Positions 6,573 to 53,183 of a stretch of DNA of 64,000 nt are shown piece after piece; position 1 is the stretch's first letter; each line of letters starts with the position of its first letter. The translations under genes and the position numbers were made by a program. A model generated the notes under the pieces. The model made no database searches, had not been told where the DNA came from, and saw nothing but the letters and a program-made list of their open reading frames with translations. This DNA comes from an uncultured delta proteobacterium (GTDB taxonomy: Bacteria > Myxococcota_A > Polyangia > Polyangiales > Polyangiaceae), in assembly GCA_963782055.1 (NCBI GenBank), contig CAWAIF010000003.1:2624001-2688000 (forward strand). The letters run 5' to 3'.

Positions 6573-6626
6573 GAACGTGAGCCTTGCCTCACGTTCTGCC
6601 AGAACGTGAGACATCCCTCATGTTCT
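6573..6626. promoter_or_regulatory. Two palindromic operator sites between the divergent P450 and TetR genes
   Basis: GAACGTGAG-N6-CTCACGTTC (6573-6596, perfect) and AGAACGTGAG-N6-CTCATGTTCT (6601-6626, one mismatch). Confidence 0.8.
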
Positions 6627-6638
6627 GTCAACCCACCC

Positions 6639-7256
6639 ATGACCGCACCTCTACGCAGGACACCCACCCAGGACCGCAGCCGCCAGCGCGTGGCGCGCAT
6701 CCTGGACGTCGCCGCGCACGTCTTCGCGGAGGTGGGCTACGAGGCAGCCACGACCGAGGCCATCGCCGAGCGCGCCGGCGTCTCCATCGGCAGCCTCTAC
6801 CAGTTCTTCCCCAACAAGAAGGCGCTCTTCGAGGCGATCGGCGCGCGCTACCTGGAGCAGGCGCGGCAGCTGTTCGAGGGGCTGGTGACGCCGGACCGGC
6901 TCGCCCGGCCGTGGCAGGAGCTGCTCGACGGCCTGGTGGACGGGTTCTGGGGCTTCCACCGCACGTCACCCGGGTTCCAGGCCGTGTGGAAGGGGTTTCT
7001 CCTCTCGCCGGAGTTCCTCGTCGCCGGCGACGCCCTCAACCGCGAGATCGCCCGGCGGCTGGACGGCGTGCTGGCCCACTTCACCGGCCTGCCGAAGAAG
7101 CAGCGCGAGGTGGTGGCCACCGCGCTGGTGGAGTCGCTCTCCGCGCTGCTCAGCGTGGGCGCGAGGATGCGGGAGCCCAGGGCTTCGATGCTGAAGGAGG
7201 AGAGCAAGGTGCTCCTCAGGCGCTATCTCGAGCCCTACATGCGTCGCGACCGGTGA
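6639..7256 (+). CDS. TetR/AcrR-family transcriptional regulator
   Basis: RRTPTQDRSRQRV...IAERAGVSIGSLYQFFPNKKAL HTH. Confidence 0.93.
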   Translation: MTAPLRRTPTQDRSRQRVARILDVAAHVFAEVGYEAATTEAIAERAGVSIGSLYQFFPNKKALFEAIGARYLEQARQLFEGLVTPDRLARPWQELLDGLVDGFWGFHRTSPGFQAVWKGFLLSPEFLVAGDALNREIARRLDGVLAHFTGLPKKQREVVATALVESLSALLSVGARMREPRASMLKEESKVLLRRYLEPYMRRDR

Positions 7257-7852: not shown

Positions 7853-10800
7853 CTACTTCGCCCAGGCCTGGGCGATCTCCAGGGTGAGGGCGTTCTCCGG
7901 GACCTGGGTGAGGAACGCCTCGCGGACGGCCGCGCTGGTCATGCGGTCGGCGCGCGCCCGCAGGCGTCGCGCGGCGTCGCCGATCGCCACGCGGCCGGTG
8001 CGCTCCTGACCGTTGGCGAAGAGCGCCTCTGCCCACACGAGGCGCACCAGCGACTCGCCCTCGTCGATGCCGCCCAGCGTGACCAGCAGGTCGTAGGCCT
8101 CGCGGGAGGCGGCGAGGGCGGCGTCCTTGTCGTCGCGCAACAGCTCGATGTGCGCGAGCACCGCGAGCGCGTAGGCGCGGAAGGTGGGGGGGAGGTCCTC
8201 GCGCCGCGCGATGGACCGTGCCTGCGCCGCCGCCTCGTCGTGCATGCCCGCGCGGGCGAGCGCGTGCGCGTGGTAGATGCGCGAGCCGTCCTCCATGCGC
8301 GGCCGCTTCTGCGCGTGGAAGGCCTCGATGGCGTCCTCCTGCAGGGCGCGCGCCTCCTCCGCCCGGCCGAGGTGGGAGAGCGCGAGCCCGAGGTTCTGCT
8401 TGGAGGCAGCCGACACCGAGTCGAGGCCCATGCGATCGCCGATCGCGAGCGTCTCGCGCAGGACGCGCTCCGCCTCCTCGTACATGCCCGCCTCGATGTA
8501 GCCGTAGCCGAGGTTGACGCGGCGCGAGCAGCCGTTGCGGCGGTCCTCGATCTGGTCGAACTGACGGACGCTCTCCAGCGTCCACTCCAGCATCGCCCCG
8601 ACGTCCCCGGCGAAGTGGGCGATCGCCGCGCGCGCCGTCGCCGCCTGGGCCGCGACGATGGGCTCCTGCATGACCTCCGAGCTGCCGTGCGACTCCAGCA
8701 GGGCGAGCATGGACATGGAGGCCGCCGGGTCGCCCGCGTGCGCGAAGGCGACGCACGTCTGCGCCACGGCGATGGCGAGCGCCGCGCCGAACGTCCCGTG
8801 CGCCGCCTTCTCCACGCGTCCGGCCAGCGCGGTCAGCTCCTCGGTGCGGTGCATGCGCCCCCACGCCGCCGCGAGCTGGCCGGCCGCGTTGCACCACGCG
8901 TCGCCGCCCTCCGGGAGCAGGCGAAGCGCCTCCTCGAAGCAGCTCACCGCGCGCGCCGACTCGCCGCGCCACCACGCCACGTTGCCCAGCAGCGTGCGCA
9001 GCAGCCCGAGCTCCTCACCCGCCGCGCCGCACCGGATGCCGAGCTCGGCGCACTCCACCGCCCCGTCCAGGTCGTTGCCGCCCACCGCGCGCATCGCGGC
9101 GCGCAGGTACCAGGGCGCCGCCCGCGAAGGCTGGCCGCTCTGCCCGTAGTGCCCGGCGAGCAGGAGCGGGTCAGTCTCGCCGGCGCGCTCGAGCCACGTC
9201 CCGGCGACGCGGTGGCCGACGGCGCGATCCTGCGCGGTGAGCGTGGCGTACGCGGCCTCCCGGACGAGCGCGTTGCGGAAGATGTACTCGCGCTCGCCGG
9301 GGAAGCGGCCCTCCGACCGGCGGCTGACGATCTCCCGCTCGCAGAGGGTGTCGAGCCACTCGCCGGCGTGCGGCGCGAGGGAGGCGTCGACGAGGGCGGA
9401 GACGCCGCCGCCCCAGAAGACGTCGCCGAAGACGCTCGCGGCGCGCAGGACCTGCCGCGCGTCGCCCTCCAGCGCGTCGAGGCGCGCCTGCACCATCGCC
9501 AGCACCGTCTCGGGCAAGGCGTCCCCGTGGCCGCTGGCGATCGAGCGGATGAGCTCTTCCAGGTAGAAGACGTTGCCGCCGGCCAGCCCGATGATGCGCG
9601 CGACGGTCGGCGCGGTGATGCGGTCGCCCAGGACGTGCCGCACCAGCTTCTCGGCCGCCTTGCGGGAGATCTCTCCCAGGTGGAGGCTGGTGGTGCGACG
9701 GCCGGACCACAGCCTGGGGAAGGCGTCGCGCACCGCGGGGCGTCCGAGCGCCAGCACCATGAGCGGCGAGTCGGCGAGGGAGCGCAACGCGCCGTCGACG
9801 AGGCGGACCGTGGGCAGGTCTCCCCACTGCAGGTCCTCGAGCACCAGCAGCACCGGGTTGGCGGCGCACTCGGCGGCGAGGAAGTCCTCCCACGCGCGCT
9901 GCATCAGGTCGCCCATGAGCACGGCGTCGCGGCGCGCCGCGCGGAGCTGCGCGCTCTCCTCGTCGCCGAAGGGGACGCCCGCGATCTCGCCGAGGAACTC
10001 GCTCAGGCGCGCGACGTCGCCGGGGGCCGCGTGCCGCGCGATGCGCGCGCGGAGCTTCTGCTGGCGCACCGGGAGGGGCTCGCCCTCCAGGACCCGCGCC
10101 GCCTGGCGCAGGACCTGCCGCGCCAGCGCGAAGGGCGAGCCGGCCTGCATGGGGTCGCCCCGGCCGACCCAGACCTCCACCTTGTCCCCCCGCTCCTTCA
10201 CGCGTCGCACGAACTCGTAGCGCAGGCGCGACTTGCCCACGCCCGCGTCGCCGACGACCAGGGTGACGCTCGCCACCTCCTCCTCGCCGCACTCCTCCCA
10301 CGCCGCCATCAACGTCCCGAGCTCCCGCTCGCGCCCCACACACGGCGTGACCATGCCGAGCAGCTTCCGCGTGGCGTCGGCGATCTCCCGCTCCTGGGTG
10401 AGGAACAGGCCGCCCTGATCGTCGCCCCCGAGCTCGAAGCGGGCGTCGAGCAGCCCGGCGGTGGTCTCGTCGGTGCGGATGCCGCAGCGGCCGGCGCCCG
10501 ACGCGCGGCGCGCCGTCTCGGCGTGCAGGAGCGCCGCCGCGCGCTCGATCGCCTCGCCGACGGGGAGCGGACCGGAGACGACGCCGCGCCCGGTCGCGAG
10601 CACGACGGGCGTCTCGCCCATCTCCGTCTGGACGCGCAGCGCGCAGCGTGCGGCGCGCGTGGCCTGGTCGGTCGCGCTGCCGGTGCCCTGCAGCGTCGCC
10701 ACGAGCGTCCCGCTGGCGAGGGTCTCCAGGGTCCCTCCGAACTCCCGCACCACCGGCGAGAGGCGCTCGCGCTCGGTGGCGGCCTTCGACCCGGTCTCCG

Positions 10801-11734
10801 TCGGGGGCTCGGTCTGCGCGACGATCACGCTCACCAGCCGCTGCTCGCCGTGCGTCAGGGTGGGGGGGATGCTGGAGCGTCGCGGCAGCGGCGCGCCGCT
10901 CCGCGGGGCCTCGATGCCCGCGAGCTCCTCGGCCACCGCCTGGCCATCGGCGGGGCGGTCGGCGGGATCCTTGGCGAGCATGCGCGTCACCAGGTCGTCG
11001 AGGGTGTCCGGCACCTCCGGCAACAGGTCGCGCACGCGCGGCGGCGGCTCGAAGAGGACCTTGGCGAGCACGCTCACCAGGTCGTCGCCGTGGAAGGCGT
11101 TCTGCCCCGTGAGGCACTTGAAGAGCAGCGCGCCCAGGGAGAAGACGTCCACCTGCGGGCCGAGCTCGCGCTCGCCGCGAGCCTGCTCCGGCGCGATGTA
11201 GCCCGGCGTCCCGACCAGCATTCCGGTCTTGGTGACCTCCGCCGCGGCGGAGTGCCGCGCGAGCCCGAAGTCGACGAGCATCGCCCGATCCACCTCGCCG
11301 CCGGCCAGCATCACGTTGGTGGGCTTCACGTCGCGGTGCACCAGCTTTCGTGCGTGCGCGGAGCCCAGCGCGGCGGCGATGCGGCCCGCGATGACGAGCG
11401 ACTCGGCGATGCTCAGCTTGCCGCGCCGCAGGCGCCGGGCGAGCGTCTCGCCCTCGATCCACTGCATGGCGAGGAAGGGCTCGCCCGTCGGCAGCACGCC
11501 GTGCGCCACGTAGCGGACGGCCCCGGGGTGGCTGATCTCCGCGAGCGCCGCCGTCTCCCGGGCGAAGCGCTCGGCGTGCTCCCCCGGCGCGTGCAGCACC
11601 TTGAGGGCGACGAGCTCCCCGGTGAGGGTGTCGAGCGCCCGGTGCACCGAGCCCATGCCTCCGGTGCCGACCTTCTCCTCCAGCGCGAAGCGGCCGGCGA
11701 TGAGCGAGCCGTCGTCGTGCGCGGCGTGGGACAT
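7853..11734 (-). CDS. Ser/Thr protein kinase - AAA/STAND ATPase - TPR multidomain protein
   Basis: GTGGMG, HRDVKPTN, DFG, APE; VGRERE, Walker A GDAGVGKS, Walker B VLEDLQW; helical repeat C-terminus. Confidence 0.92.
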   Translation of the reverse strand: MSHAAHDDGSLIAGRFALEEKVGTGGMGSVHRALDTLTGELVALKVLHAPGEHAERFARETAALAEISHPGAVRYVAHGVLPTGEPFLAMQWIEGETLARRLRRGKLSIAESLVIAGRIAAALGSAHARKLVHRDVKPTNVMLAGGEVDRAMLVDFGLARHSAAAEVTKTGMLVGTPGYIAPEQARGERELGPQVDVFSLGALLFKCLTGQNAFHGDDLVSVLAKVLFEPPPRVRDLLPEVPDTLDDLVTRMLAKDPADRPADGQAVAEELAGIEAPRSGAPLPRRSSIPPTLTHGEQRLVSVIVAQTEPPTETGSKAATERERLSPVVREFGGTLETLASGTLVATLQGTGSATDQATRAARCALRVQTEMGETPVVLATGRGVVSGPLPVGEAIERAAALLHAETARRASGAGRCGIRTDETTAGLLDARFELGGDDQGGLFLTQEREIADATRKLLGMVTPCVGRERELGTLMAAWEECGEEEVASVTLVVGDAGVGKSRLRYEFVRRVKERGDKVEVWVGRGDPMQAGSPFALARQVLRQAARVLEGEPLPVRQQKLRARIARHAAPGDVARLSEFLGEIAGVPFGDEESAQLRAARRDAVLMGDLMQRAWEDFLAAECAANPVLLVLEDLQWGDLPTVRLVDGALRSLADSPLMVLALGRPAVRDAFPRLWSGRRTTSLHLGEISRKAAEKLVRHVLGDRITAPTVARIIGLAGGNVFYLEELIRSIASGHGDALPETVLAMVQARLDALEGDARQVLRAASVFGDVFWGGGVSALVDASLAPHAGEWLDTLCEREIVSRRSEGRFPGEREYIFRNALVREAAYATLTAQDRAVGHRVAGTWLERAGETDPLLLAGHYGQSGQPSRAAPWYLRAAMRAVGGNDLDGAVECAELGIRCGAAGEELGLLRTLLGNVAWWRGESARAVSCFEEALRLLPEGGDAWCNAAGQLAAAWGRMHRTEELTALAGRVEKAAHGTFGAALAIAVAQTCVAFAHAGDPAASMSMLALLESHGSSEVMQEPIVAAQAATARAAIAHFAGDVGAMLEWTLESVRQFDQIEDRRNGCSRRVNLGYGYIEAGMYEEAERVLRETLAIGDRMGLDSVSAASKQNLGLALSHLGRAEEARALQEDAIEAFHAQKRPRMEDGSRIYHAHALARAGMHDEAAAQARSIARREDLPPTFRAYALAVLAHIELLRDDKDAALAASREAYDLLVTLGGIDEGESLVRLVWAEALFANGQERTGRVAIGDAARRLRARADRMTSAAVREAFLTQVPENALTLEIAQAWAK

Positions 11735-11858
11735 GCCATCATCAGCATAAGCGCGTGCGCGGCGGAAGGGGGGCAAATCCCGCGCGGCGCGGATGAGGTC
11801 CGGCCGGAGGCCGCCGACGGCCCGAAGGGCAGGTGGCCCCTGAGGTAGAGTGGTCGCC

Positions 11859-12491
11859 ATGATCCGAACCGCCGGTCTGGCTCCTCTCGTCTGCGTGTGT
11901 GCGAGCGCGCTCCTCTCCTGTGGCGGCGGCGCGGCCTCCACGGTCGCCGCTCCACCGACCGCGCCATCCGGTCCGCCGCCGAGCGCGCCCGCCGCGACGT
12001 CCGCGCCCGCCGCGACGTCCGCGTCCACCGCGCAGGACACCTCGCCCGCGCCCATCGGGCACCGTCATCGCAAGGTCGGCAACGGGTGGTTCCTCTCCGG
12101 CGGGGGCAAGGGCTCCTACGAGGCGGTGTTCGAGCCCGGGCCGCCGCCCGACGTGGTGATGCGGCCCACCGGCGATCCCGGCGGCCGCTGGGTGACGCTC
12201 ATGAAGAACGTCGCGGCCGCGCGCTATCGCGGCAAGAAGGTGCGCATCCGCATCGGCATCAAGACCCAGGGCGTCACCGGGCGCGGGGAGATCTGGGCGC
12301 GCGCCGCCGCCCCGGGCAATCCAGAGGACGCGCCGAGCACCACCGCGCCGCTCGACGCGAGCGCGGCGATGAAGACCTACGAGGTGACCATCGACGTGAA
12401 GCCGGGGGCGCGCGTCGTGGAGTACGGCGCGTCGATCGTCGGTCCGGGCAGCCTTTGGGTGGGGGAGGACGCGATCGACGTGGTCCAGTGA
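11859..12491 (+). CDS. Hypothetical lipoprotein with a jelly-roll-like C-terminal domain
   Basis: Lipobox LLSC, Pro/Ala linker, then GWFLSG...TLMKNVAAARYRGKKVRI...GEIWAR...GPGSLWV. Confidence 0.65.
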   Translation: MIRTAGLAPLVCVCASALLSCGGGAASTVAAPPTAPSGPPPSAPAATSAPAATSASTAQDTSPAPIGHRHRKVGNGWFLSGGGKGSYEAVFEPGPPPDVVMRPTGDPGGRWVTLMKNVAAARYRGKKVRIRIGIKTQGVTGRGEIWARAAAPGNPEDAPSTTAPLDASAAMKTYEVTIDVKPGARVVEYGASIVGPGSLWVGEDAIDVVQ

Positions 12492-43698: not shown

Positions 43699-44283
43699 TC
43701 AGCGCGGGTCGCGCCACATGAGCCACACCGGCGGCGCGTCCTCGGCCATGCGAAACTCCTCGGTCAGGGCGAAGCCGTGGCGCTCGTAGAGGCGCGCGTT
43801 CGTCTCGGTCGAGGCCTCCAGGTAAGCGGCTGCGCCGTCGGCGTCGCAGCAATCCAGCACGCCGCGGAGCAGCGCCGAGCCGATGCCGCGACCTTGCTTC
43901 TCGGGATCCACGCCTATCGCGAAGAGGTACCAGTGCGCCCGGGAGGGGTGCCTCTCCTGGACGCGCTGCCCGGCGCGCGCCCGGGCGAGCGCGCGCGTCG
44001 CCCCGACGGCGCCGAGCAGCGCCGGACCCATCGCGAGCATGCGCATCGCGCCGGTGTTCCACTTGCCCGGCGGCGTCCAGAGCGCGACGCCGTCCTCGCC
44101 GGCGAGCCACGCCTCGCGGTGCGGAAGGACCGCGTGCCGGAAGAAGGTGCCGAACGCCTGCCCCAGGCGGTCGTGGCGGAGCATGTAGTTGGCGACCGGG
44201 TCGCGATCGAAGGCGCGGGCGAGCACGCGCACGACCGTGGCGTGGTCATGCGCCTCGGCGCGTCGGAGGGGAGGGGGCGTCAT
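43699..44283 (-). CDS. GNAT N-acetyltransferase
   Basis: HWYLFAIGVDPEKQGRGIGSALL, YLEAS, NARLYERHGF. Confidence 0.92.
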   Translation of the reverse strand: MTPPPLRRAEAHDHATVVRVLARAFDRDPVANYMLRHDRLGQAFGTFFRHAVLPHREAWLAGEDGVALWTPPGKWNTGAMRMLAMGPALLGAVGATRALARARAGQRVQERHPSRAHWYLFAIGVDPEKQGRGIGSALLRGVLDCCDADGAAAYLEASTETNARLYERHGFALTEEFRMAEDAPPVWLMWRDPR

Positions 44284-44306
44284 GCGGTCATCCTGGGTCA
44301 CGGAGG

Positions 44307-45203
44307 TCACAGCTCCTCGACGGTGAAGGCGATCACCTCGCCGATGTTCCTGGTCCCCGCGACCAGGGCGCACAGCCGGTCCACGCCGAGCGCGTTGCCG
44401 CCGCTCGGGGGCATGCGCCCCACCGCCGCCAGCAGCTTCTCGTCCACCGGATACACCGGCAGGCCGCGCTCCTTCCGCGCCGCCTGGTCGCGCTCGAAGC
44501 GCGCGCGCTGCTCCACCGCGTCGGTCAGCTCGCCGAAGCCGTTGCACAGCTCGAGACCCGCGACGTACAGCTCGAAGCGCTCGGCCACGCGTGGGTCGTC
44601 CGGTTTGTTGCGCGCGAGCGACGCCATCGGCGCCGGGTACTCCGTCAAAAACACCGCGTGCGGCAGCGCGGTGAGCGCCGGCTCCACCTTCTCCACCAGC
44701 AGCCGGAAGAAGCGGTCCTCGTCGCGCTCCGCCATCGCGAGCGTCTCCTCGGCGCTCACCCCGGCGAAGCGCTCGAACGCCTCGCGGACGGTCAGCCGCG
44801 CGAAGGGCGGCCGCGCGTCCACCTCGACGCCCTCGATCACGAACCGCCCGCCCGAGACCGCGGCGACGAGCTGCTCGGTGTCGCGCATCACGTCCGCTAC
44901 CCCCGCGTTCCCGCGATACCACTCCAGCATGGTGAACTCGGGGTTGTGCTGCGCGCCGAGCTCGCCGCGCCGGAAGCACCGGCACACCTGGTAGATGCGC
45001 TCGTGCCCGCCCGCGAGCAGCCGCTTCATCTGGTACTCGGGCGAGGTGATGAGCCACCCGTCCCCGGCGGCGAAGGCGTCCAGGTGCAGGTCCATCCCCG
45101 GCGAGGGCACGATCGCCGGCGTCTCGACCTCCAGAAAGCCGCGCGCCTCGAAGAAGCGACGGATGGCGCGCAGCACGCCGGCGCGCAGCGCGAGCTGCTT
45201 CAT
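44307..45203 (-). CDS. epmA: EF-P lysine aminoacylase (GenX/PoxA)
   Basis: LITSPEYQMKRLL, HNPEFTMLEWYR, ERFELY, ELCNGFGELTD; LysRS catalytic domain without an anticodon-binding domain. Confidence 0.93.
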   Translation of the reverse strand: MKQLALRAGVLRAIRRFFEARGFLEVETPAIVPSPGMDLHLDAFAAGDGWLITSPEYQMKRLLAGGHERIYQVCRCFRRGELGAQHNPEFTMLEWYRGNAGVADVMRDTEQLVAAVSGGRFVIEGVEVDARPPFARLTVREAFERFAGVSAEETLAMAERDEDRFFRLLVEKVEPALTALPHAVFLTEYPAPMASLARNKPDDPRVAERFELYVAGLELCNGFGELTDAVEQRARFERDQAARKERGLPVYPVDEKLLAAVGRMPPSGGNALGVDRLCALVAGTRNIGEVIAFTVEEL

Positions 45204-45901
45204 CGCGGGGAGAGGCCGCCGAGCAGCAGGTCGGCGACCTGGCCCGCCGCGCGCGAGAGGCCGCCCTTCTCGGCCTTGCCGAGCGCCCAGGTGAGCGCGA
45301 TGCCGTCCAGCGCCCCGAACAGGACGCGCGCCACCAGGTGCGGCGACGCGTCCTTCCGGAACTCCCCGGCGGCCTGCCCCGCCTCCACGACCTTCGCGAT
45401 GACGTCCAGGTACGACTGGAACTTGGGCGCCGCGTACTCCTTCAGCAGCTGCGTCGACTGCCGCAGGATCACCGTCATCACCTCCGCGAGCTCGCGCTCG
45501 CCCTCCAGCAGGCCGAGCTGCAGCTCGACGACGCGCCGCAGGCGTGCGCGGGCGTCGGGCAGCTTGGGCAGCTCCTCGCGCGTGTAGGAGAGCAGGCGCT
45601 CCACCCGGTCCTCGAAGAGGGAGACGAGGAGGTCCTCCTTCGATGCAAAGTACAAGTAGATCGTGCCGTCGGCGACGCCGGCCGCGCGCGCCACGTCGGA
45701 CACGCGGGTCGCGTAGAAGCCGTTCTTGGCGAACACCTTCACGGCCGCGCCCAGGATGCGCTCGCGCTTGTCGCCGCGGGCCGCCGGGGCGCGCGCGGGC
45801 CCCCCGCGATCGGTCGGCGCCGGCCGGGCCGAGCGGCCACTCCGCGGCGCAGAAGCGCGGGATTTCCGCCTCGGTTTCGGACTGAGTGAGGATTCACTCA
45901 T
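45200..45901 (-). CDS. TetR-family regulator (fatty-acid metabolism FadR/YsiA-like)
   Basis: VSDVARAAGVADGTIYLYFASKEDLLVSLFE. Confidence 0.9.
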   Translation of the reverse strand: MSESSLSPKPRRKSRASAPRSGRSARPAPTDRGGPARAPAARGDKRERILGAAVKVFAKNGFYATRVSDVARAAGVADGTIYLYFASKEDLLVSLFEDRVERLLSYTREELPKLPDARARLRRVVELQLGLLEGERELAEVMTVILRQSTQLLKEYAAPKFQSYLDVIAKVVEAGQAAGEFRKDASPHLVARVLFGALDGIALTWALGKAEKGGLSRAAGQVADLLLGGLSPR

Positions 45902-45952
45902 TACGGCAGCCAGTAGCAAAGGGTGCCGGGGGAGACAAGGGGCGCCCCCGGG

Positions 45953-48900
45953 TCAGCGCAGGCGCGCGACCTTCCCCGCCGCCCCCCACCGCGCGTACGC
46001 CTCCCGCGCGGCGTCTCGCTCCGACCGCTTCGCGGCCCCGGCCGGGTGACACTCCGCGGCGAGCTCGTGCGCCAGCGCGATGTCGCTGATCCAGTCGGCC
46101 TCGCCCGCCAGCGTCACCGCCTCCGCGAAGTGCGCCAGCGCGCCCTCCCGGTCGCCCTCGATGCGGCGGAGCGCGCCCCGGACCAGACTCACGCGGTGCG
46201 CGAAGTTCACCGGCGCGTGGGCCGAGAGGTCGCGCAGCGCCTTCAGGCTCGCCTCCAGCCTGGGCCGCAGGGCCTGGCGCTCCGCCTCGCTCAGCTCGTC
46301 CCAGGCGCCGCTCGCGGCGAGCACCGCGAACTGGTGCATGATCGGCACGTGCCAGACCGAGGGCGCGGCGTCGAGGTAGTCGCGCGCGGTCTCGAAGCAC
46401 GCGGAGGCCTCCCGCGCGCGGCCGAAGTGATACCGCGCCAGGCCCATCACCACACGCAGCACGTAGATGCCGCTGCGCGAGCCCTCCTGCTCCGCCTGCG
46501 CCAGCAGGCTCGCCTCGTCGAAGCCGGCGTCGTCGAGGCGCGACGGGTCGGCCATCTGCCCGGTGAGGCACCGCAGCAGCTGCTCGAAGGGCGCGTGGAC
46601 GTGCAAGGCGTTGACCTGCCCGAGCGCGCGCATCTGCTCGCCGAGCTGCGTCGCCTCGGCGAGGAGCGGTGCGAGCGGGCGTCCGGCGTACATCGCGTTG
46701 TGGACGTAGCCGTGCGCCGCGTACGAGGCGTACTCCAGGTCCCCCGTGCGACGGCCGATGTCGAACACCTCCCGGAGCGGCGCGAGGATCGTGTGCAGCG
46801 GGACCATCCACGGGCACACCAGGTTGTAGACCACGTGGCGCGTGGCGGCCTCCAGGCTGCGATCCTCCCAGCGGTCGACGAGCTTGACGGCGAGCTGACC
46901 CCACTCGTGGCTGACCGGGTACATCCCCAGGGTGTTGAGCACGATCCCCAGCAGCGCGATGGCGTACGGGGTCGCCGGGGCCAGCCCGCGCTCCACCGAG
47001 GTGGTCACCAGGTTGGCCGCGAGGACGGGCAGCAGCATCGGCCTGCCGAAGTAGGCGGCGGGGCTGACGCGCACCTGCACGCGCATCGCGGCGACGACCT
47101 GGGGGTCGTCGACGTCGGGCATCGCGGCGAGGCCGGCGGGGCCCACTCGCGTCAGGCTCTTTAGCGCGGCGGTGAAGGCGGCACCGACCTCCGCCTCGCC
47201 CGGGTCCTTCGGCAGTCGCACGCCGAGCAGCTCCAGCACCTCGCTCGCCGTGTTCACCGCCGACGCGTAGTCGTGGCGGCCGATGAAGGCGTCGATCTCC
47301 ACCTCCCACGCCACGAGCTGGTCCATCACCGTGCGGCCGTGCGCCTTGACCTCGGCGATGTGCGGCGCGAGCGCGTCCCACTCCGCGCAGAGGTACGCCG
47401 TCTCCGCCGCGCCTGCGTGGAGGCCGAGGGCCAGGGCGTACTCGTCGCGCCACGCGTTCTGCGGGTCGGGCAAGAGCGCGATGCCCCGCTCGAAGCACGT
47501 GAAGGCGAGCGGGAACGCCGCCCCCCCCCGCGCGGCTCCGCCGGCCTGCAGGTGGAGCTTCGCCGCCGCGAGGCGCTCCGCCGGGTCGGTGATCAGGGAG
47601 GCGGCCGCGCCCAGGTGGCGGACCGTGTCGAACACCCAGGCGCCCGCCGGCTCGCCGTCCGATGCGGCGTGGCGCGCGGTGAGCGCACGCGCGAGGGCGA
47701 GGTGATGCGCGCGGCGCGCGCCCGTGTCCAGCGACGCGAGGACCGACTCGCGGATGCGGTCGTGGTAGGTGGCGACGCGATCGTCGGCGCCCGGACCCGT
47801 CGAGCCCAGCAAGGACGCGCTCCGCAGGGAGAGCAGCGCGGGGAGCGCCTCGGGATCCAGGCCCGCGGCGGCGAAGGCGACCGACTGGGCCACCGGGCTG
47901 TCGGCGACGGCCACGACCTCCAGCAGCGCGCGCTGATCGCGGGGCAGCGCCCGCAGGCGCGTGGCGATCGCGCCCTCGAGCGACATCTCGGCGCTCCGGG
48001 GCGTGTCGTGCGTCGCGAACCGGGCGAGCTCCTCGATGAAGAAGGGGACGCCCGCGGCCTCCTCGGCGAGGTCGCGCACGCGCGAGGGGCTCGCCGCCTC
48101 CCCGAGCGCCGCCAGCGTGGCGCGCGCCAGCGCCTCGGCGTCTTCGTGCGGGAGCGCCAGCGCGGGGAGGTCGACGAGCGCGCCGTGCGCGTCCAGCTCA
48201 CGCGCGAACGCCAGGTAGCCCGCCAGCGCGTCGTTGCGCAGCGCCTCCTCCGGCCGGAAGCTCGCCACGAGCAGGAGCGGCATCTCGCGCGGCTCCCGCA
48301 CCAGCGACTCCAGCAGTCCCGCGCTGTCTGCGTCCGCCCACTGCAGATCGTCGATCGCCAGCACGATGCTTCGACGCCGCACGCGGGCGAGCGACTCCAG
48401 CAGCTCGCGCAGCGCCGTCCACGCGCGCCGCCGCAGCTTCATCGCGTCGCGCGCGGGGGCGTGGGCCGCGCGCGCGGCGATCGCCGGGACGACCGAGAGG
48501 GCAGGGAAGACGTTCATCAGCTCGCCGGTCCACGCCGGGAGCAGCGCGTCCACGTCCAGCCGCGCGGCGCCCTCGCTGCGCTGCGCCTCCAGCAGCCTCT
48601 CGGCGAGCTGATCGACGATGCCGTCGAAGGCCTTGTACGGCACGCTCTCGCGCTCGTAGCACCGGCCGGAGAAGACCTCCGCCTGGTGCATGTCGCGTAC
48701 GCCACCGACGAAGCTCCGCACCACCGCCGACTTCCCGATGCCCGACGCGCCGCGCACGTGCGCCACCGTCAGGCGTCCCTCCCGCGTCCGCTCGAAGGCG
48801 CGCGCCAGCGTCGCGAGCTCCTGAGTGCGGCCGACGAAGACCGACCGCGGCGCGCGGCCCGTCGCGCCCAGCCCGCCGCCCGCGCCCTTGGTCAGGATCG

Positions 48901-49882
48901 CGAGCACCTCCCGCCCTTCGGGACGGAGCTCCGGCTCCGGGCGGAGCAGCCACGCGCAGAGCTCGCTCAGGTCCGCCGGGAGGCCGGGCAGCAGCAGGCG
49001 CGGCGCCGGGGGCGTCTGCAGCGTCTTCTGGATGTACAGCTCCACGTGGCTCGAGGCGCCGGCGAAGGGCAGTCGTCCGGTCAGGATCTCGTAGAGCATC
49101 ACCCCGAGCGCGTACCAGTCGGAGGCCGGGCCCACCTCGCCGCCGGTCATCTGCTCGGGGGACATGTACGTCGGGGTGCCGCTGAGCGCCGACGAGCGCG
49201 TCTCTTCCCCGACGCGCCGCGCCAGCCCGAAGTCCACCACCACCACGTCGCCCTCGCCACGCACCAGCACGTTGCTCGGCTTGACGTCGCCGTGCCAGAG
49301 GCCCGCGTCATGGAGGGCGAGCACACCCCGGGCGAGCGCGCCGAACGCCTCGCGCACCGTCTCGATGGGTCGCGTCGGCGGTGCGACGCTGCCAGAGTCG
49401 AGGAGGTGCGGCGGCGTGGCCTCGTCGAGCGCCGGGTCGTGCTCGCGCATCGTCGGCATCTCGTGCCGCAGCGTGAGCCGTATGCCGCGCACATCCAGAT
49501 CCTGCCCGCGCGCCCACCGCCGGAAGTCGATCCCCTCGATCCGTTCCATGGCGAAGAACCACAGGCCGTCCTCGCAGCCCAGCTCGTAGACCGGGGCGAG
49601 GTTGGGGTGCGACAGGTCCGCGACCGTCCGGAACTCGCGCTTCAGCCGCACGCCGGCCGCCGCGTCGGCCACCAGGATCGTCTTGAGGGCGACCCGCGCG
49701 TCGCGCTCCCGGTCGATGGCGTCGTGGACGGTCCCCATCCCGCCCCCGCCAAGGCGCCCCACCACCTCGTAGCGTCCGAGCGTGACCGGGTGCTCCGGGG
49801 TGGCCGCGAGGAGCTTCGCGAGGAGCGCCTCGGCGGCGATGCTGCTCGCGTCGTCGTCGCCTTGCTCTGCGGCGGTCGCCAT
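45953..49882 (-). CDS. Ser/Thr protein kinase - AAA/STAND ATPase - helical repeat protein
   Basis: GGGGMG, HGDVKPSN, DFG; FVGR, GASGIGKS, IDDLQWAD, GVPFF, HDRIRE. Confidence 0.92.
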   Translation of the reverse strand: MATAAEQGDDDASSIAAEALLAKLLAATPEHPVTLGRYEVVGRLGGGGMGTVHDAIDRERDARVALKTILVADAAAGVRLKREFRTVADLSHPNLAPVYELGCEDGLWFFAMERIEGIDFRRWARGQDLDVRGIRLTLRHEMPTMREHDPALDEATPPHLLDSGSVAPPTRPIETVREAFGALARGVLALHDAGLWHGDVKPSNVLVRGEGDVVVVDFGLARRVGEETRSSALSGTPTYMSPEQMTGGEVGPASDWYALGVMLYEILTGRLPFAGASSHVELYIQKTLQTPPAPRLLLPGLPADLSELCAWLLRPEPELRPEGREVLAILTKGAGGGLGATGRAPRSVFVGRTQELATLARAFERTREGRLTVAHVRGASGIGKSAVVRSFVGGVRDMHQAEVFSGRCYERESVPYKAFDGIVDQLAERLLEAQRSEGAARLDVDALLPAWTGELMNVFPALSVVPAIAARAAHAPARDAMKLRRRAWTALRELLESLARVRRRSIVLAIDDLQWADADSAGLLESLVREPREMPLLLVASFRPEEALRNDALAGYLAFARELDAHGALVDLPALALPHEDAEALARATLAALGEAASPSRVRDLAEEAAGVPFFIEELARFATHDTPRSAEMSLEGAIATRLRALPRDQRALLEVVAVADSPVAQSVAFAAAGLDPEALPALLSLRSASLLGSTGPGADDRVATYHDRIRESVLASLDTGARRAHHLALARALTARHAASDGEPAGAWVFDTVRHLGAAASLITDPAERLAAAKLHLQAGGAARGGAAFPLAFTCFERGIALLPDPQNAWRDEYALALGLHAGAAETAYLCAEWDALAPHIAEVKAHGRTVMDQLVAWEVEIDAFIGRHDYASAVNTASEVLELLGVRLPKDPGEAEVGAAFTAALKSLTRVGPAGLAAMPDVDDPQVVAAMRVQVRVSPAAYFGRPMLLPVLAANLVTTSVERGLAPATPYAIALLGIVLNTLGMYPVSHEWGQLAVKLVDRWEDRSLEAATRHVVYNLVCPWMVPLHTILAPLREVFDIGRRTGDLEYASYAAHGYVHNAMYAGRPLAPLLAEATQLGEQMRALGQVNALHVHAPFEQLLRCLTGQMADPSRLDDAGFDEASLLAQAEQEGSRSGIYVLRVVMGLARYHFGRAREASACFETARDYLDAAPSVWHVPIMHQFAVLAASGAWDELSEAERQALRPRLEASLKALRDLSAHAPVNFAHRVSLVRGALRRIEGDREGALAHFAEAVTLAGEADWISDIALAHELAAECHPAGAAKRSERDAAREAYARWGAAGKVARLR

Positions 49883-50026
49883 TCCTCTCCCGGCCTCGGA
49901 CCTTCCCTGAAGAGACCCATTGTCGCACGGCGAGGGCGCGCGGTGGGGCGCGTCGTCGGGGGCCTGGAGAGCCGGTGTCGTACGGCGCCCCCGCGGGGGT
50001 CGGGCCTCTGGTACGCTTCCCGGGCC

Positions 50027-50443
50027 ATGCCGCGCGCGATCGCCGTCCTCCCGCTCTTCGCCGCGCTCCTCGCGGGGCCCGCGGCCCAGGCTCGACCGAC
50101 GCCGCCGCCGGATCACAAGCCTGCCGTCATCCCGCCGGCCAAGCGCCAGGAGGCGGCGATCGCCGCGCGCGTCCGCACCGTCCTGCAGGCCTTCCGCGGC
50201 AAGCCGGATGACGCCAGCACCTGGGCTCAGGCGCGGGCCGCCGTCGGCAACACCCTCTTGGAGCTGTGGCGCTCCGGCGTGCTCAAGGGCAACAAGGCCA
50301 GCCTGGCGTACACCGTCGCGTGCGGGGGAGGCGCGACGATGACGCAGAACGACATCAACCTGAAGCGCCTGGTCGTGGTCTACGGCGTGGCGCTGCAGAA
50401 GCCGGCGGAGTTCTCGTACACCGTGGTGAGCCTGGTCCTGTAG
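50027..50443 (+). CDS. Exported protein consisting of a contractile tail-sheath C-terminal domain
   Basis: Sec-type signal MPRAIAVLPLFAALLAGPAAQA; then KPDDASTWAQAR...LWRSGVLKG...AYTVACG...TMTQNDI...VYGVALQKPAEF, matching the sheath pattern EPND..W...LWRxG...T.T..DI...G.A..KPAEF. Confidence 0.82.
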   Translation: MPRAIAVLPLFAALLAGPAAQARPTPPPDHKPAVIPPAKRQEAAIAARVRTVLQAFRGKPDDASTWAQARAAVGNTLLELWRSGVLKGNKASLAYTVACGGGATMTQNDINLKRLVVVYGVALQKPAEFSYTVVSLVL

Positions 50444-50452
50444 GGAGGGGCC

Positions 50453-50722
50453 CTACCTCGCCAGCATGAACATCCGCTCGGCGAAGACCGCGACCTGATG
50501 ACCCATCCACGGTCCGGCCACCACCAGCGCCACGACCACCGCCAGGATGCGGGGCAGGTGCGAGATCGTCGGGTCCTGGATCTGCGAGGCCGCCTGGAAC
50601 GCCGCCACCACCAGCCCGACCAGCGCCGCCACGCCGACGGCGGGCAGGGACACCGCGAGCGAGAGGATGAGCGCCTCCTGCCCGTGCTGCACCAGCGCGG
50701 CCGCGTGCGGGGCCATCGTCAC
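50453..50722 (-). CDS. fliQ: Type III export apparatus small subunit FliQ/SctS
   Basis: VGLVVAAFQAASQIQDPTISHLPRIL...GPWM; two hydrophobic segments; start GTG 50722 or ATG 50716. Confidence 0.88.
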   Translation of the reverse strand: MTMAPHAAALVQHGQEALILSLAVSLPAVGVAALVGLVVAAFQAASQIQDPTISHLPRILAVVVALVVAGPWMGHQVAVFAERMFMLAR

Positions 50723-51159
50723 TCCGAGGCCGCGTCGGACGCCGCGTCGCCACCGCCGGCGTCGCTCGCCGCGTCGCCCGTCGTCGCGTCGCCGCTGCCG
50801 GCGTCGGAGGCCGCGTCCCCGCCGCCGCTGTCGCTCGATGTCGCGTCGGGCACGCCGGTGTCGGGCAAGCTGGCGTCGCTGCCGGGGGAGAGCGGGTTGA
50901 GCTTGCAGATGTCGGTCGTCGCCTGCGAGCGGTCCGGCGGGCAGCAGATGTCGGCGCTGCTGTTGTTGACGCCCGCCTCGGTCACGATGGTGATCTGACC
51001 GCCGGGCGTGCAGATGAGGCCGTTGTCGCAGTCGTCGTTGTTGTTGTTGGTCTCGCAGCGCTCGCCCTCTCCGTGGGTGGCGCACGACGCCGTCGGCACG
51101 ATGACCACGAAGCCGACGGCGGCGATCGCAAGGAAAAATAGGCGCGAGGGCTTCCGCAT
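50719..51159 (-). CDS. Cys-rich lipoprotein with a low-complexity DA-rich tail
   Basis: TASC lipobox-like site; GEGERC...DDCDNGLIC...ICCP. Confidence 0.75.
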   Translation of the reverse strand: MRKPSRLFFLAIAAVGFVVIVPTASCATHGEGERCETNNNNDDCDNGLICTPGGQITIVTEAGVNNSSADICCPPDRSQATTDICKLNPLSPGSDASLPDTGVPDATSSDSGGGDAASDAGSGDATTGDAASDAGGGDAASDAASE

Positions 51160-52055: not shown

Positions 52056-53183
52056 CTACTTGGGGGCCTTCATGACGAAGCCGTCGTTCAGGTTGCTGCT
52101 GTTGCCGTAGTCCGTCCAGTAGACGAAGGCGCTGTCGACAGCGACGAACTTGGGGACGTTCTGCTTGGTCGCGAAGTCGGTGGGCGTGCACTGGGCGAGT
52201 GAGCACTTGCGCACGATGCCGTCGGAGAGCTGGAAGTTGCCGCTGGCGACCCAGTACAGGTCGGTGGTGTCGGAGGTGATGCCGAAGGGATAGTGCTCCT
52301 GCAGCGCGACGGGGGACGTGCCGGCGTCGAAACCGGAGGTCTCCACGTAGGAGACCTTCCCCGGGTCGGCGAGGTTGGTCCAGTACAGCTTGCTCCCGGC
52401 CAGCGTCAGCCCGTAGGCGGGGGCCGGCGCGCCGGGCGCGGTGACGGTGACCGGTGTCCCGCCGCCGACGGGCACGCGCACGACCTCTCCGGTGTCGAGC
52501 GCGACGTAGACGTTGCCGCCCGTGACGACGAGGCCCTCGGCGTCGTCGGAGAAATCCGCCAGGTGCTGCGGCGTGCCGCTCGAGGCCGTCTTGTCGATCC
52601 GGTACAGATCGCCGGGGCCGTACTCGGTGAAGTAGACGTAGTTGCCGTCGACCGCGACGTAGTTGGGGGTCCCGGTGCCGTAGCCGCAGAGGGCGGTGGG
52701 CGCGTTCTGGCAGCCAGCCTTGTCGCAGCGGAAGATGGTGTCGACGGAGTTCCAGTAGAGGTAGGTGCCGTCCTGGGTGATGGAGCGCGGCCCGTAGCCC
52801 GCGGAGTTGTTGCCGTCGGCCATGGGGATGGCGCCGGAGCCGTCGACCTTGCTCGCGCGCATGACGCGGCTGGTGAGCGACTCGGTCCAGTAGACGTAGG
52901 TGTCGTCGACGATGATGTCCCACGGGCGGATGCCGGAGGCCAGCACGACGGGACCGCCGCCGCCGTCGCCGCCGTCCGACGCGGTGGCGTCGTCGCCGGT
53001 GTCGGGTGTGGCATCGCCGGTCGAGCCGGAGTCGCCCGCGTCGCCGCCGTCGGTCTGCGAGGTGGAGCCGTCGCCGCCGATGGTGTCGTCGACGGTGGGC
53101 TCCTGCAGGCCGAGGAGGCCGGAGCAGGCGAACAGGCCAGCCGAACCGGCGAGGGCGGCGAGGAGGAAGAGGGAGCGGCGCAT
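52056..53183 (-). CDS. Beta-propeller (YWT-repeat) lipoprotein
   Basis: LFAC lipobox; repeated IxVDxxYVYWT blades. Confidence 0.85.
   Translation of the reverse strand: MRRSLFLLAALAGSAGLFACSGLLGLQEPTVDDTIGGDGSTSQTDGGDAGDSGSTGDATPDTGDDATASDGGDGGGGPVVLASGIRPWDIIVDDTYVYWTESLTSRVMRASKVDGSGAIPMADGNNSAGYGPRSITQDGTYLYWNSVDTIFRCDKAGCQNAPTALCGYGTGTPNYVAVDGNYVYFTEYGPGDLYRIDKTASSGTPQHLADFSDDAEGLVVTGGNVYVALDTGEVVRVPVGGGTPVTVTAPGAPAPAYGLTLAGSKLYWTNLADPGKVSYVETSGFDAGTSPVALQEHYPFGITSDTTDLYWVASGNFQLSDGIVRKCSLAQCTPTDFATKQNVPKFVAVDSAFVYWTDYGNSSNLNDGFVMKAPK

Follow-up and report, generated by a model that had tools for sequence, protein, structure and literature searches.

In the textbook view, contractile sheath proteins are structural parts of the virion or of the cytoplasm, and the gp25/TssE-type sheath initiators are cytoplasmic baseplate components whose genes lie within clusters for contractile injection systems (CIS). 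In domain I of the sheath an attachment helix touches the tube, and subunits are interwoven by beta-strand handshakes, as outlined in PMC8894135 and PMC12546770; the same two sources describe gp25-like and cap proteins as mimics of the sheath handshake. For the R-pyocin, the account in PMC6088184 pairs a positive patch of the attachment helix with a complementary patch on the tube. Here we describe a gene, in a 64,000-nucleotide stretch of contig CAWAIF010000003.1 from an uncultured, soil-type delta proteobacterium (assembly GCA_963782055.1; the whole stretch is called the window below), whose product appears to consist of this sheath module alone behind a predicted signal peptide and a proline-rich linker. 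The gene lies at 50027-50443 (plus strand, stop codon included) and its 138-residue product is referred to as P0001. We are confident of the joint statement that P0001 is a sheath domain and that it is exported.

The open reading frame (ORF) of 138 codons put forward in the original prediction was borne out by its coding signature. In the host genome (~72% GC, 97% complete; labelled G000), the P0001 gene shows a GC content by codon position of 0.71/0.52/0.95, as in clearly coding neighbours, and its base composition is native to the genome. In public data the gene is called as P0002 (166 aa), with a start at GTG 49943 that lies 28 codons further upstream and hides the signal peptide. The 84 nt that it adds (49943-50026) have a GC content by codon position of 0.75/0.75/0.89, which argues that this extension is not coding, and P0003, the closest homologue, is likewise 138 aa long and begins at the equivalent Met. 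Because of these two observations ATG 50027 was taken as the start. The codon periodicity of coding DNA was absent by the same measure from 49890-50026, and the 144-bp divergent intergenic region between this start and that of the upstream kinase gene (49883-50026; kinase ATG at 49882, minus strand) is without coding periodicity. A scan near the gene for promoters and terminators revealed neither a sigma-70 consensus nor an intrinsic terminator consensus. We regard it as established, or nearly so, that this is a functional chromosomal gene.

Residues 1-22 (50027-50092, plus strand) form a predicted Sec-type signal peptide. Substrates of signal peptidase I (SPase I) were taken to have a positive n-region, an uncharged hydrophobic core of 7-15 residues and small residues at -3 and -1; P0001 has R3 in its n-region, an uncharged core, and A20 and A22 within an A-Q-A at -3 to -1. 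According to a crude home-made hydropathy heuristic, the best 10-residue window starts at residue 5, with a mean Kyte-Doolittle value of 2.67 and zero charge. Neither a twin-arginine motif nor a lipobox Cys was present in the leader sequence. The same leader type is found in P0003, where PAAQA is conserved. The signal peptide is probably cut after A-Q-A (residue 22), giving a predicted mature protein of ~116 aa with a net charge of +8 and a pI of 10.2. Residues 23-36 (50093-50134, plus strand) constitute the Pro-rich linker, whose closing V-I-P-P stretch is kept in P0003 and P0004. The linker is unstructured in an AlphaFold2 (AF2) model, and the leader has low predicted local distance difference test (pLDDT) values of 54-63. 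The Sec-type signal ending in AQA and the proline linker of the original prediction are thus both seen.

The rest of the protein, residues 37-138 (50135-50440, plus strand), is a sheath C-terminal (domain I) module. A phmmer search of PDB chains aligned residues 37-130 with positions 348-441 of 451 in Afp3 (6rao_D, E 1.9e-15) and with positions 252-344 of 355 in Pvc2 (6j0b_A, E 4.8e-13). All 15 distinct PDB sequences matching at E<=10 were contractile sheaths, the PVC, AlgoCIS, Anabaena, Streptomyces and haloarchaeal CIS sheaths among them, and a tail sheath family of PHROGs also matched (E 2.5e-10). The Pfam model Phage_sheath_1C (PF17482), proposed earlier as the relevant family, picked out the right region (residues 45-132 against model positions 18-99 of 104; E 0.0026), with a score beneath the gathering cut-off that is taken up below; P0003 carries a precomputed PF17482 match. 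In the AF2 model, built from a 150-row alignment, mean pLDDT was 89.8 overall and ~98 across residues 37-138. The module comprises helices 37-56 and 63-82, strands 95-99 and 114-121 and a terminal strand 130-137, together with short helices, and the position of the terminal strand matches that of the C-terminal handshake arm of sheaths. Foldseek returned 23 PDB matches at E<=1e-3; those listed were all CIS or phage sheaths, including those of Afp, PVC, AlgoCIS and the Anabaena CIS, with a probability of 1.00 over 92-94 columns at 28-38% identity. The resemblance of ~100 residues to the sheath C-terminal domain, and the structural match named beforehand as a test of it, were therefore both found.

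The sheath motifs quoted in the original prediction are present, and P0001 keeps all of the sheath-wide invariant residues: W66, G84, G88, T104-M105-T106, D109, P126, E128 and F129. The C-terminal arm is also kept, with 8 residues past the aligned core compared with 10-11 in Afp3 and Pvc2. Missing are the N-terminal 250-350 residues of sheaths, with the PF04984 domain and the N-terminal arm; the 36 residues that precede the module are all leader and linker. A three-copy prediction of residues 23-138 gave a score of 0.00 and a mark of 0.42, which by the rule of the tool are no evidence either way. P0001 is sheath domain I by sequence and fold, and is not a working sheath subunit.

No machine was found in the host for it to join. 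Family searches of the host genome returned no PF04984 sheath N-domain, no second PF17482 match, and no match to VipB/TssC, gp25 (PF04965), Baseplate_J, Phage_GPD or Hcp. Pfam searches of 48 window ORFs likewise identified no phage, tube, baseplate, second sheath or CIS gene, so that the description of the window as lacking a tube, baseplate or other sheath gene stood both here and in the genome-wide family searches. As the host lacks a contractile machine for it to join, we read P0001 as a domesticated component whose new role would lie outside the cytoplasm. The lone gp19-type match in the genome is P0239, a 292-aa protein encoded 2.5 Mb from P0001 (G000:C3:5168763-5169641, plus strand; positions 1312-2190 of locus L051). 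It has a leader-like N-terminus and scores 32.3 bits against Phage_T4_gp19, above the Pfam cut-off of 28.2, and would thus be a second CIS part in exported form, co-occurring with P0001 in one genome. That an exported tube-like protein exists alongside P0001 suggests a phenomenon wider than a single gene.

Further proteins consisting of a signal peptide and a sheath C-terminal domain, the kind envisaged in the original prediction, do exist. A word-based search found P0003, of identical length and encoded on a 1.5-kb contig, as the sole match in the near length range, at 61-63% identity. An exhaustive profile-free search at E<=1e-3 yielded 2783 proteins, the majority of them sheaths of full length. 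Among the fetched proteins of <=200 aa, 21 have an uncharged hydrophobic segment before the domain by our crude heuristic; with P0005, whose N-terminus is cut and which was added by eye, they make up the 22 leader-bearing rows analysed below. Six short fragments with a hydrophobic window inside the domain and the membrane protein P0171 were not counted. Within the set, P0103 is Tat-like and P0044 resembles a lipoprotein. The sources name these relatives "phage tail sheath protein FI" or "hypothetical", and one comes from a Labilithrix metagenome-assembled genome (MAG). The ENA/Logan source contigs measured 11.4 kb for P0014, 7 kb for P0233, ~7 kb for P0146/P0237, 5.7 kb for P0103, 6.2 kb for P0187 and 53 kb for P0153. 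P0001, P0003, P0004, P0014 and P0021 can be aligned over their whole length of 135-138 aa; in these five, G-K-P-D/N replaces the V-F-E-P-N of sheaths, and a C-terminal Leu is found. P0003 and four Bacteroidota-like relatives begin at the equivalent Met, with the leader first.

Leader-bearing forms differ from sheaths in charge. Over the same ~100 aligned residues in every row, the median net charge is +3 in the 22 leader-bearing rows (mean 3.2, pI 9.2; 19/22 positive), compared with -1 in 124 full-length sheath rows (pI 5.4); 48 short leaderless rows have a median of -1.5 and are, like the full-length sheaths, acidic as a group. The difference between leader-bearing and full-length rows gave a Mann-Whitney p of 4e-10, which is descriptive only since the rows are related, and the contrast persists within each of two tree groups. 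Individual positions (P0001 numbering) show where the changes lie. Position 46 is Glu in 105/124 full-length rows and Gln, Lys, Glu or other in leader rows. Position 59, the E of V-F-E-P-N, is Glu in 108/124 full-length rows; among leader rows it is Lys in nine and Glu in four. Position 85 is Ala in 98/124 full-length rows and Lys or Arg in 11/22 leader rows, and position 118, Glu in 54/124 full-length rows, is hydrophobic in leader rows. Both the reversed charge and the loss of the two Glu offer concrete handles for testing.

The leader-bearing rows are also clustered in trees, whose resolution is poor as they rest on 100 columns. In a FastTree tree of 220 domain rows the leader label needs 8 changes, compared with 21.3 in shuffles (0/500). 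An IQ-TREE tree drew on 79 rows: all 22 leader rows, 15 selected short rows and every third one of full length. There the label takes 9 changes, compared with 19.6 in shuffles. The latter tree places 36/42 full-length rows in one group (support 90), and P0001 in a 10-row group (SH-aLRT 80) beside six other leader-bearing rows. This seven-row leader group including P0001, which was named after the tree had been seen, was not rejected as a clade (p-AU 0.988). An exclusive clade of all 22 leader rows was marginally rejected (p-AU 0.037), and the design of leader plus sheath C-terminal domain may therefore have arisen more than once.

The distribution of the design is sporadic. P0001 was found in 0/6 congeners, and the leader-bearing form in none of 60 relatives. 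A sheath C-terminal match was present in 194/401 genomes of the phylum; among the 150 matches listed (242 further ones are weaker), only that of the host covers the leader, all others starting at model position >=39. Nearly all of these listed matches lie in open frames of at least ~380 aa, with a few truncated by the end of a contig. P0021 as query detected no locus in genome or metagenome contigs. The pair alignment A4 as query found nothing in metagenome contigs and, in genome contigs, solely a 465-aa full-length sheath from a Rhodohalobacter MAG (locus L021, 2712-4109). That sheath has no obvious tube gene in its 12-kb locus, where the ORF list shows peptidase- and TPR-like neighbours, and it may be an orphan full-length sheath. 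In viral scans with A4, P0021, P0058, P0103 and P0087 as queries, the leader-bearing short form was not among the inspected loci, L068 (24 residues matched) being left out. Viral loci L069 and L070 each hold a full-length sheath gene within a cluster of sheath and tube genes, and 50 of the 53 viral loci of one scan are ORFs of >=236 aa, the other three being short fragments at contig edges. Short leaderless sheath C-terminal proteins also occur on long contigs of 10 to 489 kb (P0153, P0160, P0200, P0209, P0214 and P0190), and in P0190 (318 aa, on a 457-kb contig) the domain is fused to a HAD hydrolase. These may represent a different kind of detached sheath domain.

We consider it likely that P0001 has been neo-functionalised, that is, domesticated, rather than decayed. 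A chance remnant is unlikely because the gene has a native coding signature and a confident fold, because leader, linker, domain and length are kept at 61-63% identity in P0003, and because the design recurs across very different organisms with a shared charge pattern. The wording "domestication rather than decay" of the original prediction is thus supported: the design recurs at identical length in P0003 and in about 20 short proteins, the codons are native, and the charge shift and Glu losses are shared.

As to what the domesticated protein does, our best explanation, tentatively held, is a domesticated, exported sheath domain I with an anti-contractile role. P0001 would be made with a Sec signal peptide, and the mature protein of ~116 aa would reach the periplasm or the cell exterior as a Pro-rich linker followed by the innermost eCIS-type (extracellular CIS) sheath module only. 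The surfaces that it keeps from the attachment helix and the handshake, and that have become positively charged, would serve as binding faces, with which the module might bind tube-type beta-barrels or the exposed handshake strands of incoming myophage tails, tailocins, eCIS or type VI secretion system (T6SS) tubes. Binding would interfere with the incoming device and make the gene a sporadic conflict or defence gene. This binding step, with action in conflict, is possible and, on its own, doubtful. It is suggested by the retention of the tube-contacting domain and the C-terminal arm, by the extra positive charge, which fits electrostatic contacts between sheath and tube, and by a sporadic, species-specific distribution in a phylum where sheath-bearing neighbours are common.

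Several observations weigh against such a role. The sheath of an attacker never enters the target cell; in the periplasm there would be nothing but the tube to encounter. A lone domain without the avidity of a polymer would have little avidity, and the N-terminal handshake arm is absent from P0001. The loss of two near-invariant Glu could equally mean that the canonical contacts have been abandoned. The PF17482 score of 18.2 bits lies under the gathering score of 26.9, which by Pfam's own criterion leaves P0001 outside the family, and its predicted export is read from the sequence alone. The clusters of leader-bearing homologues are all tiny (1-9 members) and metagenomic, and the neighbourhood evidence comes from the host genome only. 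The neighbours themselves say little, since kinases such as the one next to P0001 are very common and the window holds a second TetR/kinase pair. Finally, PADLOC-DB 2.0 gave 0 families for P0001.

Were the anti-contractile reading to extend beyond this locus, exported sheath-core domains would form a widespread, overlooked class of envelope proteins against contractile tails. P0001 and the ~20 metagenomic relatives would be its members, a periplasmic module would grip the incoming tube and block delivery, and P0239 would be a second example; we think this generalisation unlikely. If tube gripping is true, a principle of superinfection exclusion or defence would have been built from the attacker's own part. 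Binding of tubes or handshake strands would mean that contractile phages, tailocins, eCIS or T6SS face a defence of a new kind, and would provide a ready-made reagent to block or label contractile devices. If something else is bound, P0001 would document how a phage structural fold was exapted for use in the envelope of a bacterium. In any case a tube-contacting core sent through Sec in a genome free of CIS points to a second life of the sheath module outside the machine.

The best-surviving alternative, which we rate as rather unlikely, makes P0001 an envelope protein unrelated to contractile devices. Here the module of two helices and three strands would be reused as a basic binder of anionic envelope or matrix polymers, or of another partner, and its sheath ancestry would be mere history. 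The positive charge shift is strong and recurrent, as this would have it, and the loss of the two Glu of working sheaths, a genome without CIS and the absent N-terminal arm all fit as well. Harder to reconcile with it are the retention of every sheath-invariant residue and of a C-terminal arm about as long as that of Afp3 and Pvc2.

Alternatively, P0001 and P0239 might combine in the envelope into a tube/sheath-like assembly that does not contract. P0239 is leader-like and above the Phage_T4_gp19 cut-off, and its ~300-aa relatives without a leader have a sheath gene as their direct neighbour in six or more genomes of the class. Sheath domain I is moreover, in the sources outlined above, the part that touches the tube, and neither gene turned up in the congeners searched; P0239 was found in 1/41 close-relative genomes (the host counted) and in 11/401 of the phylum. 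Set against this, the two genes lie 2.5 Mb apart, and solitary leader-bearing tube-like genes also occur in genomes G353 (locus L071, G353:C13) and G426 (locus L076, G426:C62), neither of which gave a sheath C-terminal match. The exported sheath and tube-like proteins are thus not obligate partners, and the three tube-like loci have no neighbours in common. A charge shift comparable to that of the leader-bearing sheath rows was not seen among the tube-like proteins. Both mature proteins are basic (+8 for P0001, +4 for P0239) and therefore not complementary, which counts against a partnership. We judge it distinctly unlikely.

A self-assembling exported oligomer or fibre, in which every subunit lends its C-terminal strand to a neighbour's sheet in a one-armed handshake, is very unlikely. 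Strand 130-137 is kept, with a tail of similar length to that of Afp3 and Pvc2, and the sources cited above present handshake mimicry by small proteins (gp25-like proteins, caps) as established. In the monomer model, however, the strand completes the protein's own sheet at a pLDDT of ~98, and Pfam searches of the window revealed no usher, sortase or other assembly gene nearby; a sheath-like mesh is impossible because P0001 has no N-terminal arm.

That P0001 is a decaying sheath remnant with a fortuitous hydrophobic N-terminus and no function seems highly improbable. Such a reading would suit a gene confined to a single species of its genus, a sub-threshold Pfam score and the existence of many short leaderless sheath C-terminal ORFs, some on long contigs. 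It is contradicted by P0003, which keeps leader, linker, domain and exact length at 61-63% identity, by native codon usage and a fold confidence of ~98, and by derived features of the leader-bearing forms that the short leaderless forms lack (net charge +3 vs -1.5). Least probable of all is a start at GTG 49943, which would bury the hydrophobic segment 28 residues into a cytoplasmic 166-aa protein: P0002 is the form in the public collection and a GAGGG lies 6 nt ahead of that GTG, but the added 84 nt have the GC pattern of non-coding DNA and P0003 and the four Bacteroidota-like relatives start at the equivalent Met with a leader.

The gene is oriented opposite to both of its neighbours, as first described, the upstream kinase gene being divergent and the downstream FliQ-like gene convergent. 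It belongs to a block of ~5.2 kb (45200-50443; tblastn against five congener loci) that comprises genes for a TetR-family regulator, the kinase and the sheath C-terminal protein. The divergent neighbour (45956-49882, minus strand; Pfam) encodes a 1309-aa Ser/Thr kinase with a STAND-like AAA_16 domain, and the third gene of the block (45200-45916, minus strand; Pfam) encodes the TetR-family regulator. Five sister species keep the order kinase-TPR-propeller-SDR-FliQ (SDR, short-chain dehydrogenase) and then have the GNAT-domain gene (43699-45054 in the window) directly after FliQ, as judged by tblastn with window proteins; the block is therefore specific to this species. The best congener matches of the TetR regulator are just 29-32% identical, and no orthologue of the C-terminal 749 aa of the kinase was found in six congeners. 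No convincing flanking repeats were found at the block borders. Matches of the kinase to the defence systems PD-T4-6, mad6 and MkoA are confined to the generic kinase domain and were rejected as evidence of a defence system. The second pair in the window consists of a TetR gene (6606-7253, plus strand) adjoining a gene for a 1400-aa Ser/Thr kinase with AAA_16 and TPR domains (7856-12055, minus strand).

The convergent gene, 9 bp past the P0001 stop codon (50456-50722, minus strand), encodes an 89-aa protein of the FliQ/SctS family (PF01313, E 2.9e-23). It is conserved at ~70% identity in 7/7 genomes of the genus and stands alone beside the dehydrogenase gene; FliP and FlhA homologues lie far off on the chromosome, and the export-apparatus genes are thus dispersed. 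Beyond it come genes for a small secreted Cys- and Asp/Ala/Ser-rich protein and for a short-chain dehydrogenase. The former gene (50722-51085, minus strand), directly upstream of the FliQ-like gene, encodes a leader-bearing protein whose core is rich in Cys and whose repetitive tail is rich in Asp, Ala and Ser (DNA repeats at 50733-50843); it had no Pfam match and was not detected in the five sister loci at E 1e-5. A secreted 375-aa protein encoded at 52059-53183 (minus strand), also without a Pfam match, is present as a single copy here and as two tandem copies in three sister species (loci L017, L019 and L020; adjacent tblastn matches). The remaining window holds ordinary chromosomal genes for a P450, sugar-nucleotide enzymes, molybdopterin synthesis, glycosyltransferases and kinases.

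Our full-text literature search turned up no paper in which a signal peptide is joined to the sheath C-terminal domain alone. The "major outer sheath" proteins of Treponema came up as a match and are unrelated, and a Salmonella CIS paper concerns a membrane-bound amidase rather than an exported sheath. To us, then, a bacterial, Sec-type, eCIS-derived form of the sheath C-terminal domain, in a genome without CIS and with an exported tube-like protein alongside, is new.

Among described systems, the nearest in sequence are the sheaths Afp2/Afp3/Afp4 of the Serratia AFP (6rao/6rbn) and Pvc2/Pvc3/Pvc4 of the Photorhabdus PVC (6j0b/6j0n, 9qgl), to whose last ~95 residues before the C-terminal arm residues 37-130 align at E 1.9e-15 to 4e-06. 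P0001 shares their fold and keeps the residues invariant across sheaths. Unlike them, it lacks the 250-350 N-terminal residues, has a Sec leader, is basic rather than acidic, has lost two near-invariant Glu, and comes without a tube or baseplate context in a genome without CIS. Measured against any working sheath subunit (T4 gp18, Afp2-4, Pvc2-4 or TssBC), it has neither the N-domain nor the N-terminal arm, neither the CIS context nor the cytoplasmic location. The gp25, TssE, Pvc9 and Alg9 initiators (GPW_gp25; 5iw9, 2ia7) are, like P0001, stand-alone proteins of ~130 aa, and are described, in the sources as far as cited here, as mimics of the handshake domain. Their fold resemblance to P0001 is weak (Foldseek E 0.099 to 0.21), and the sequence of P0001 is far closer to true sheath C-termini; with no PF04965 match at E<=10, P0001 was ruled out as a gp25/TssE-type initiator. 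The architecture of P0001 is instead that of a metagenomic leader-bearing group made up of P0003, P0004, P0014, P0021, P0146 and P0108, all of 135-140 aa except P0108 (169 aa), beside which P0058, P0079, P0087, P0103, P0105, P0106, P0187 and others form a looser second group. Within this company P0003 alone is close to P0001, at 61-63% identity, and the other leader-bearing relatives are 28-40% identical to it.

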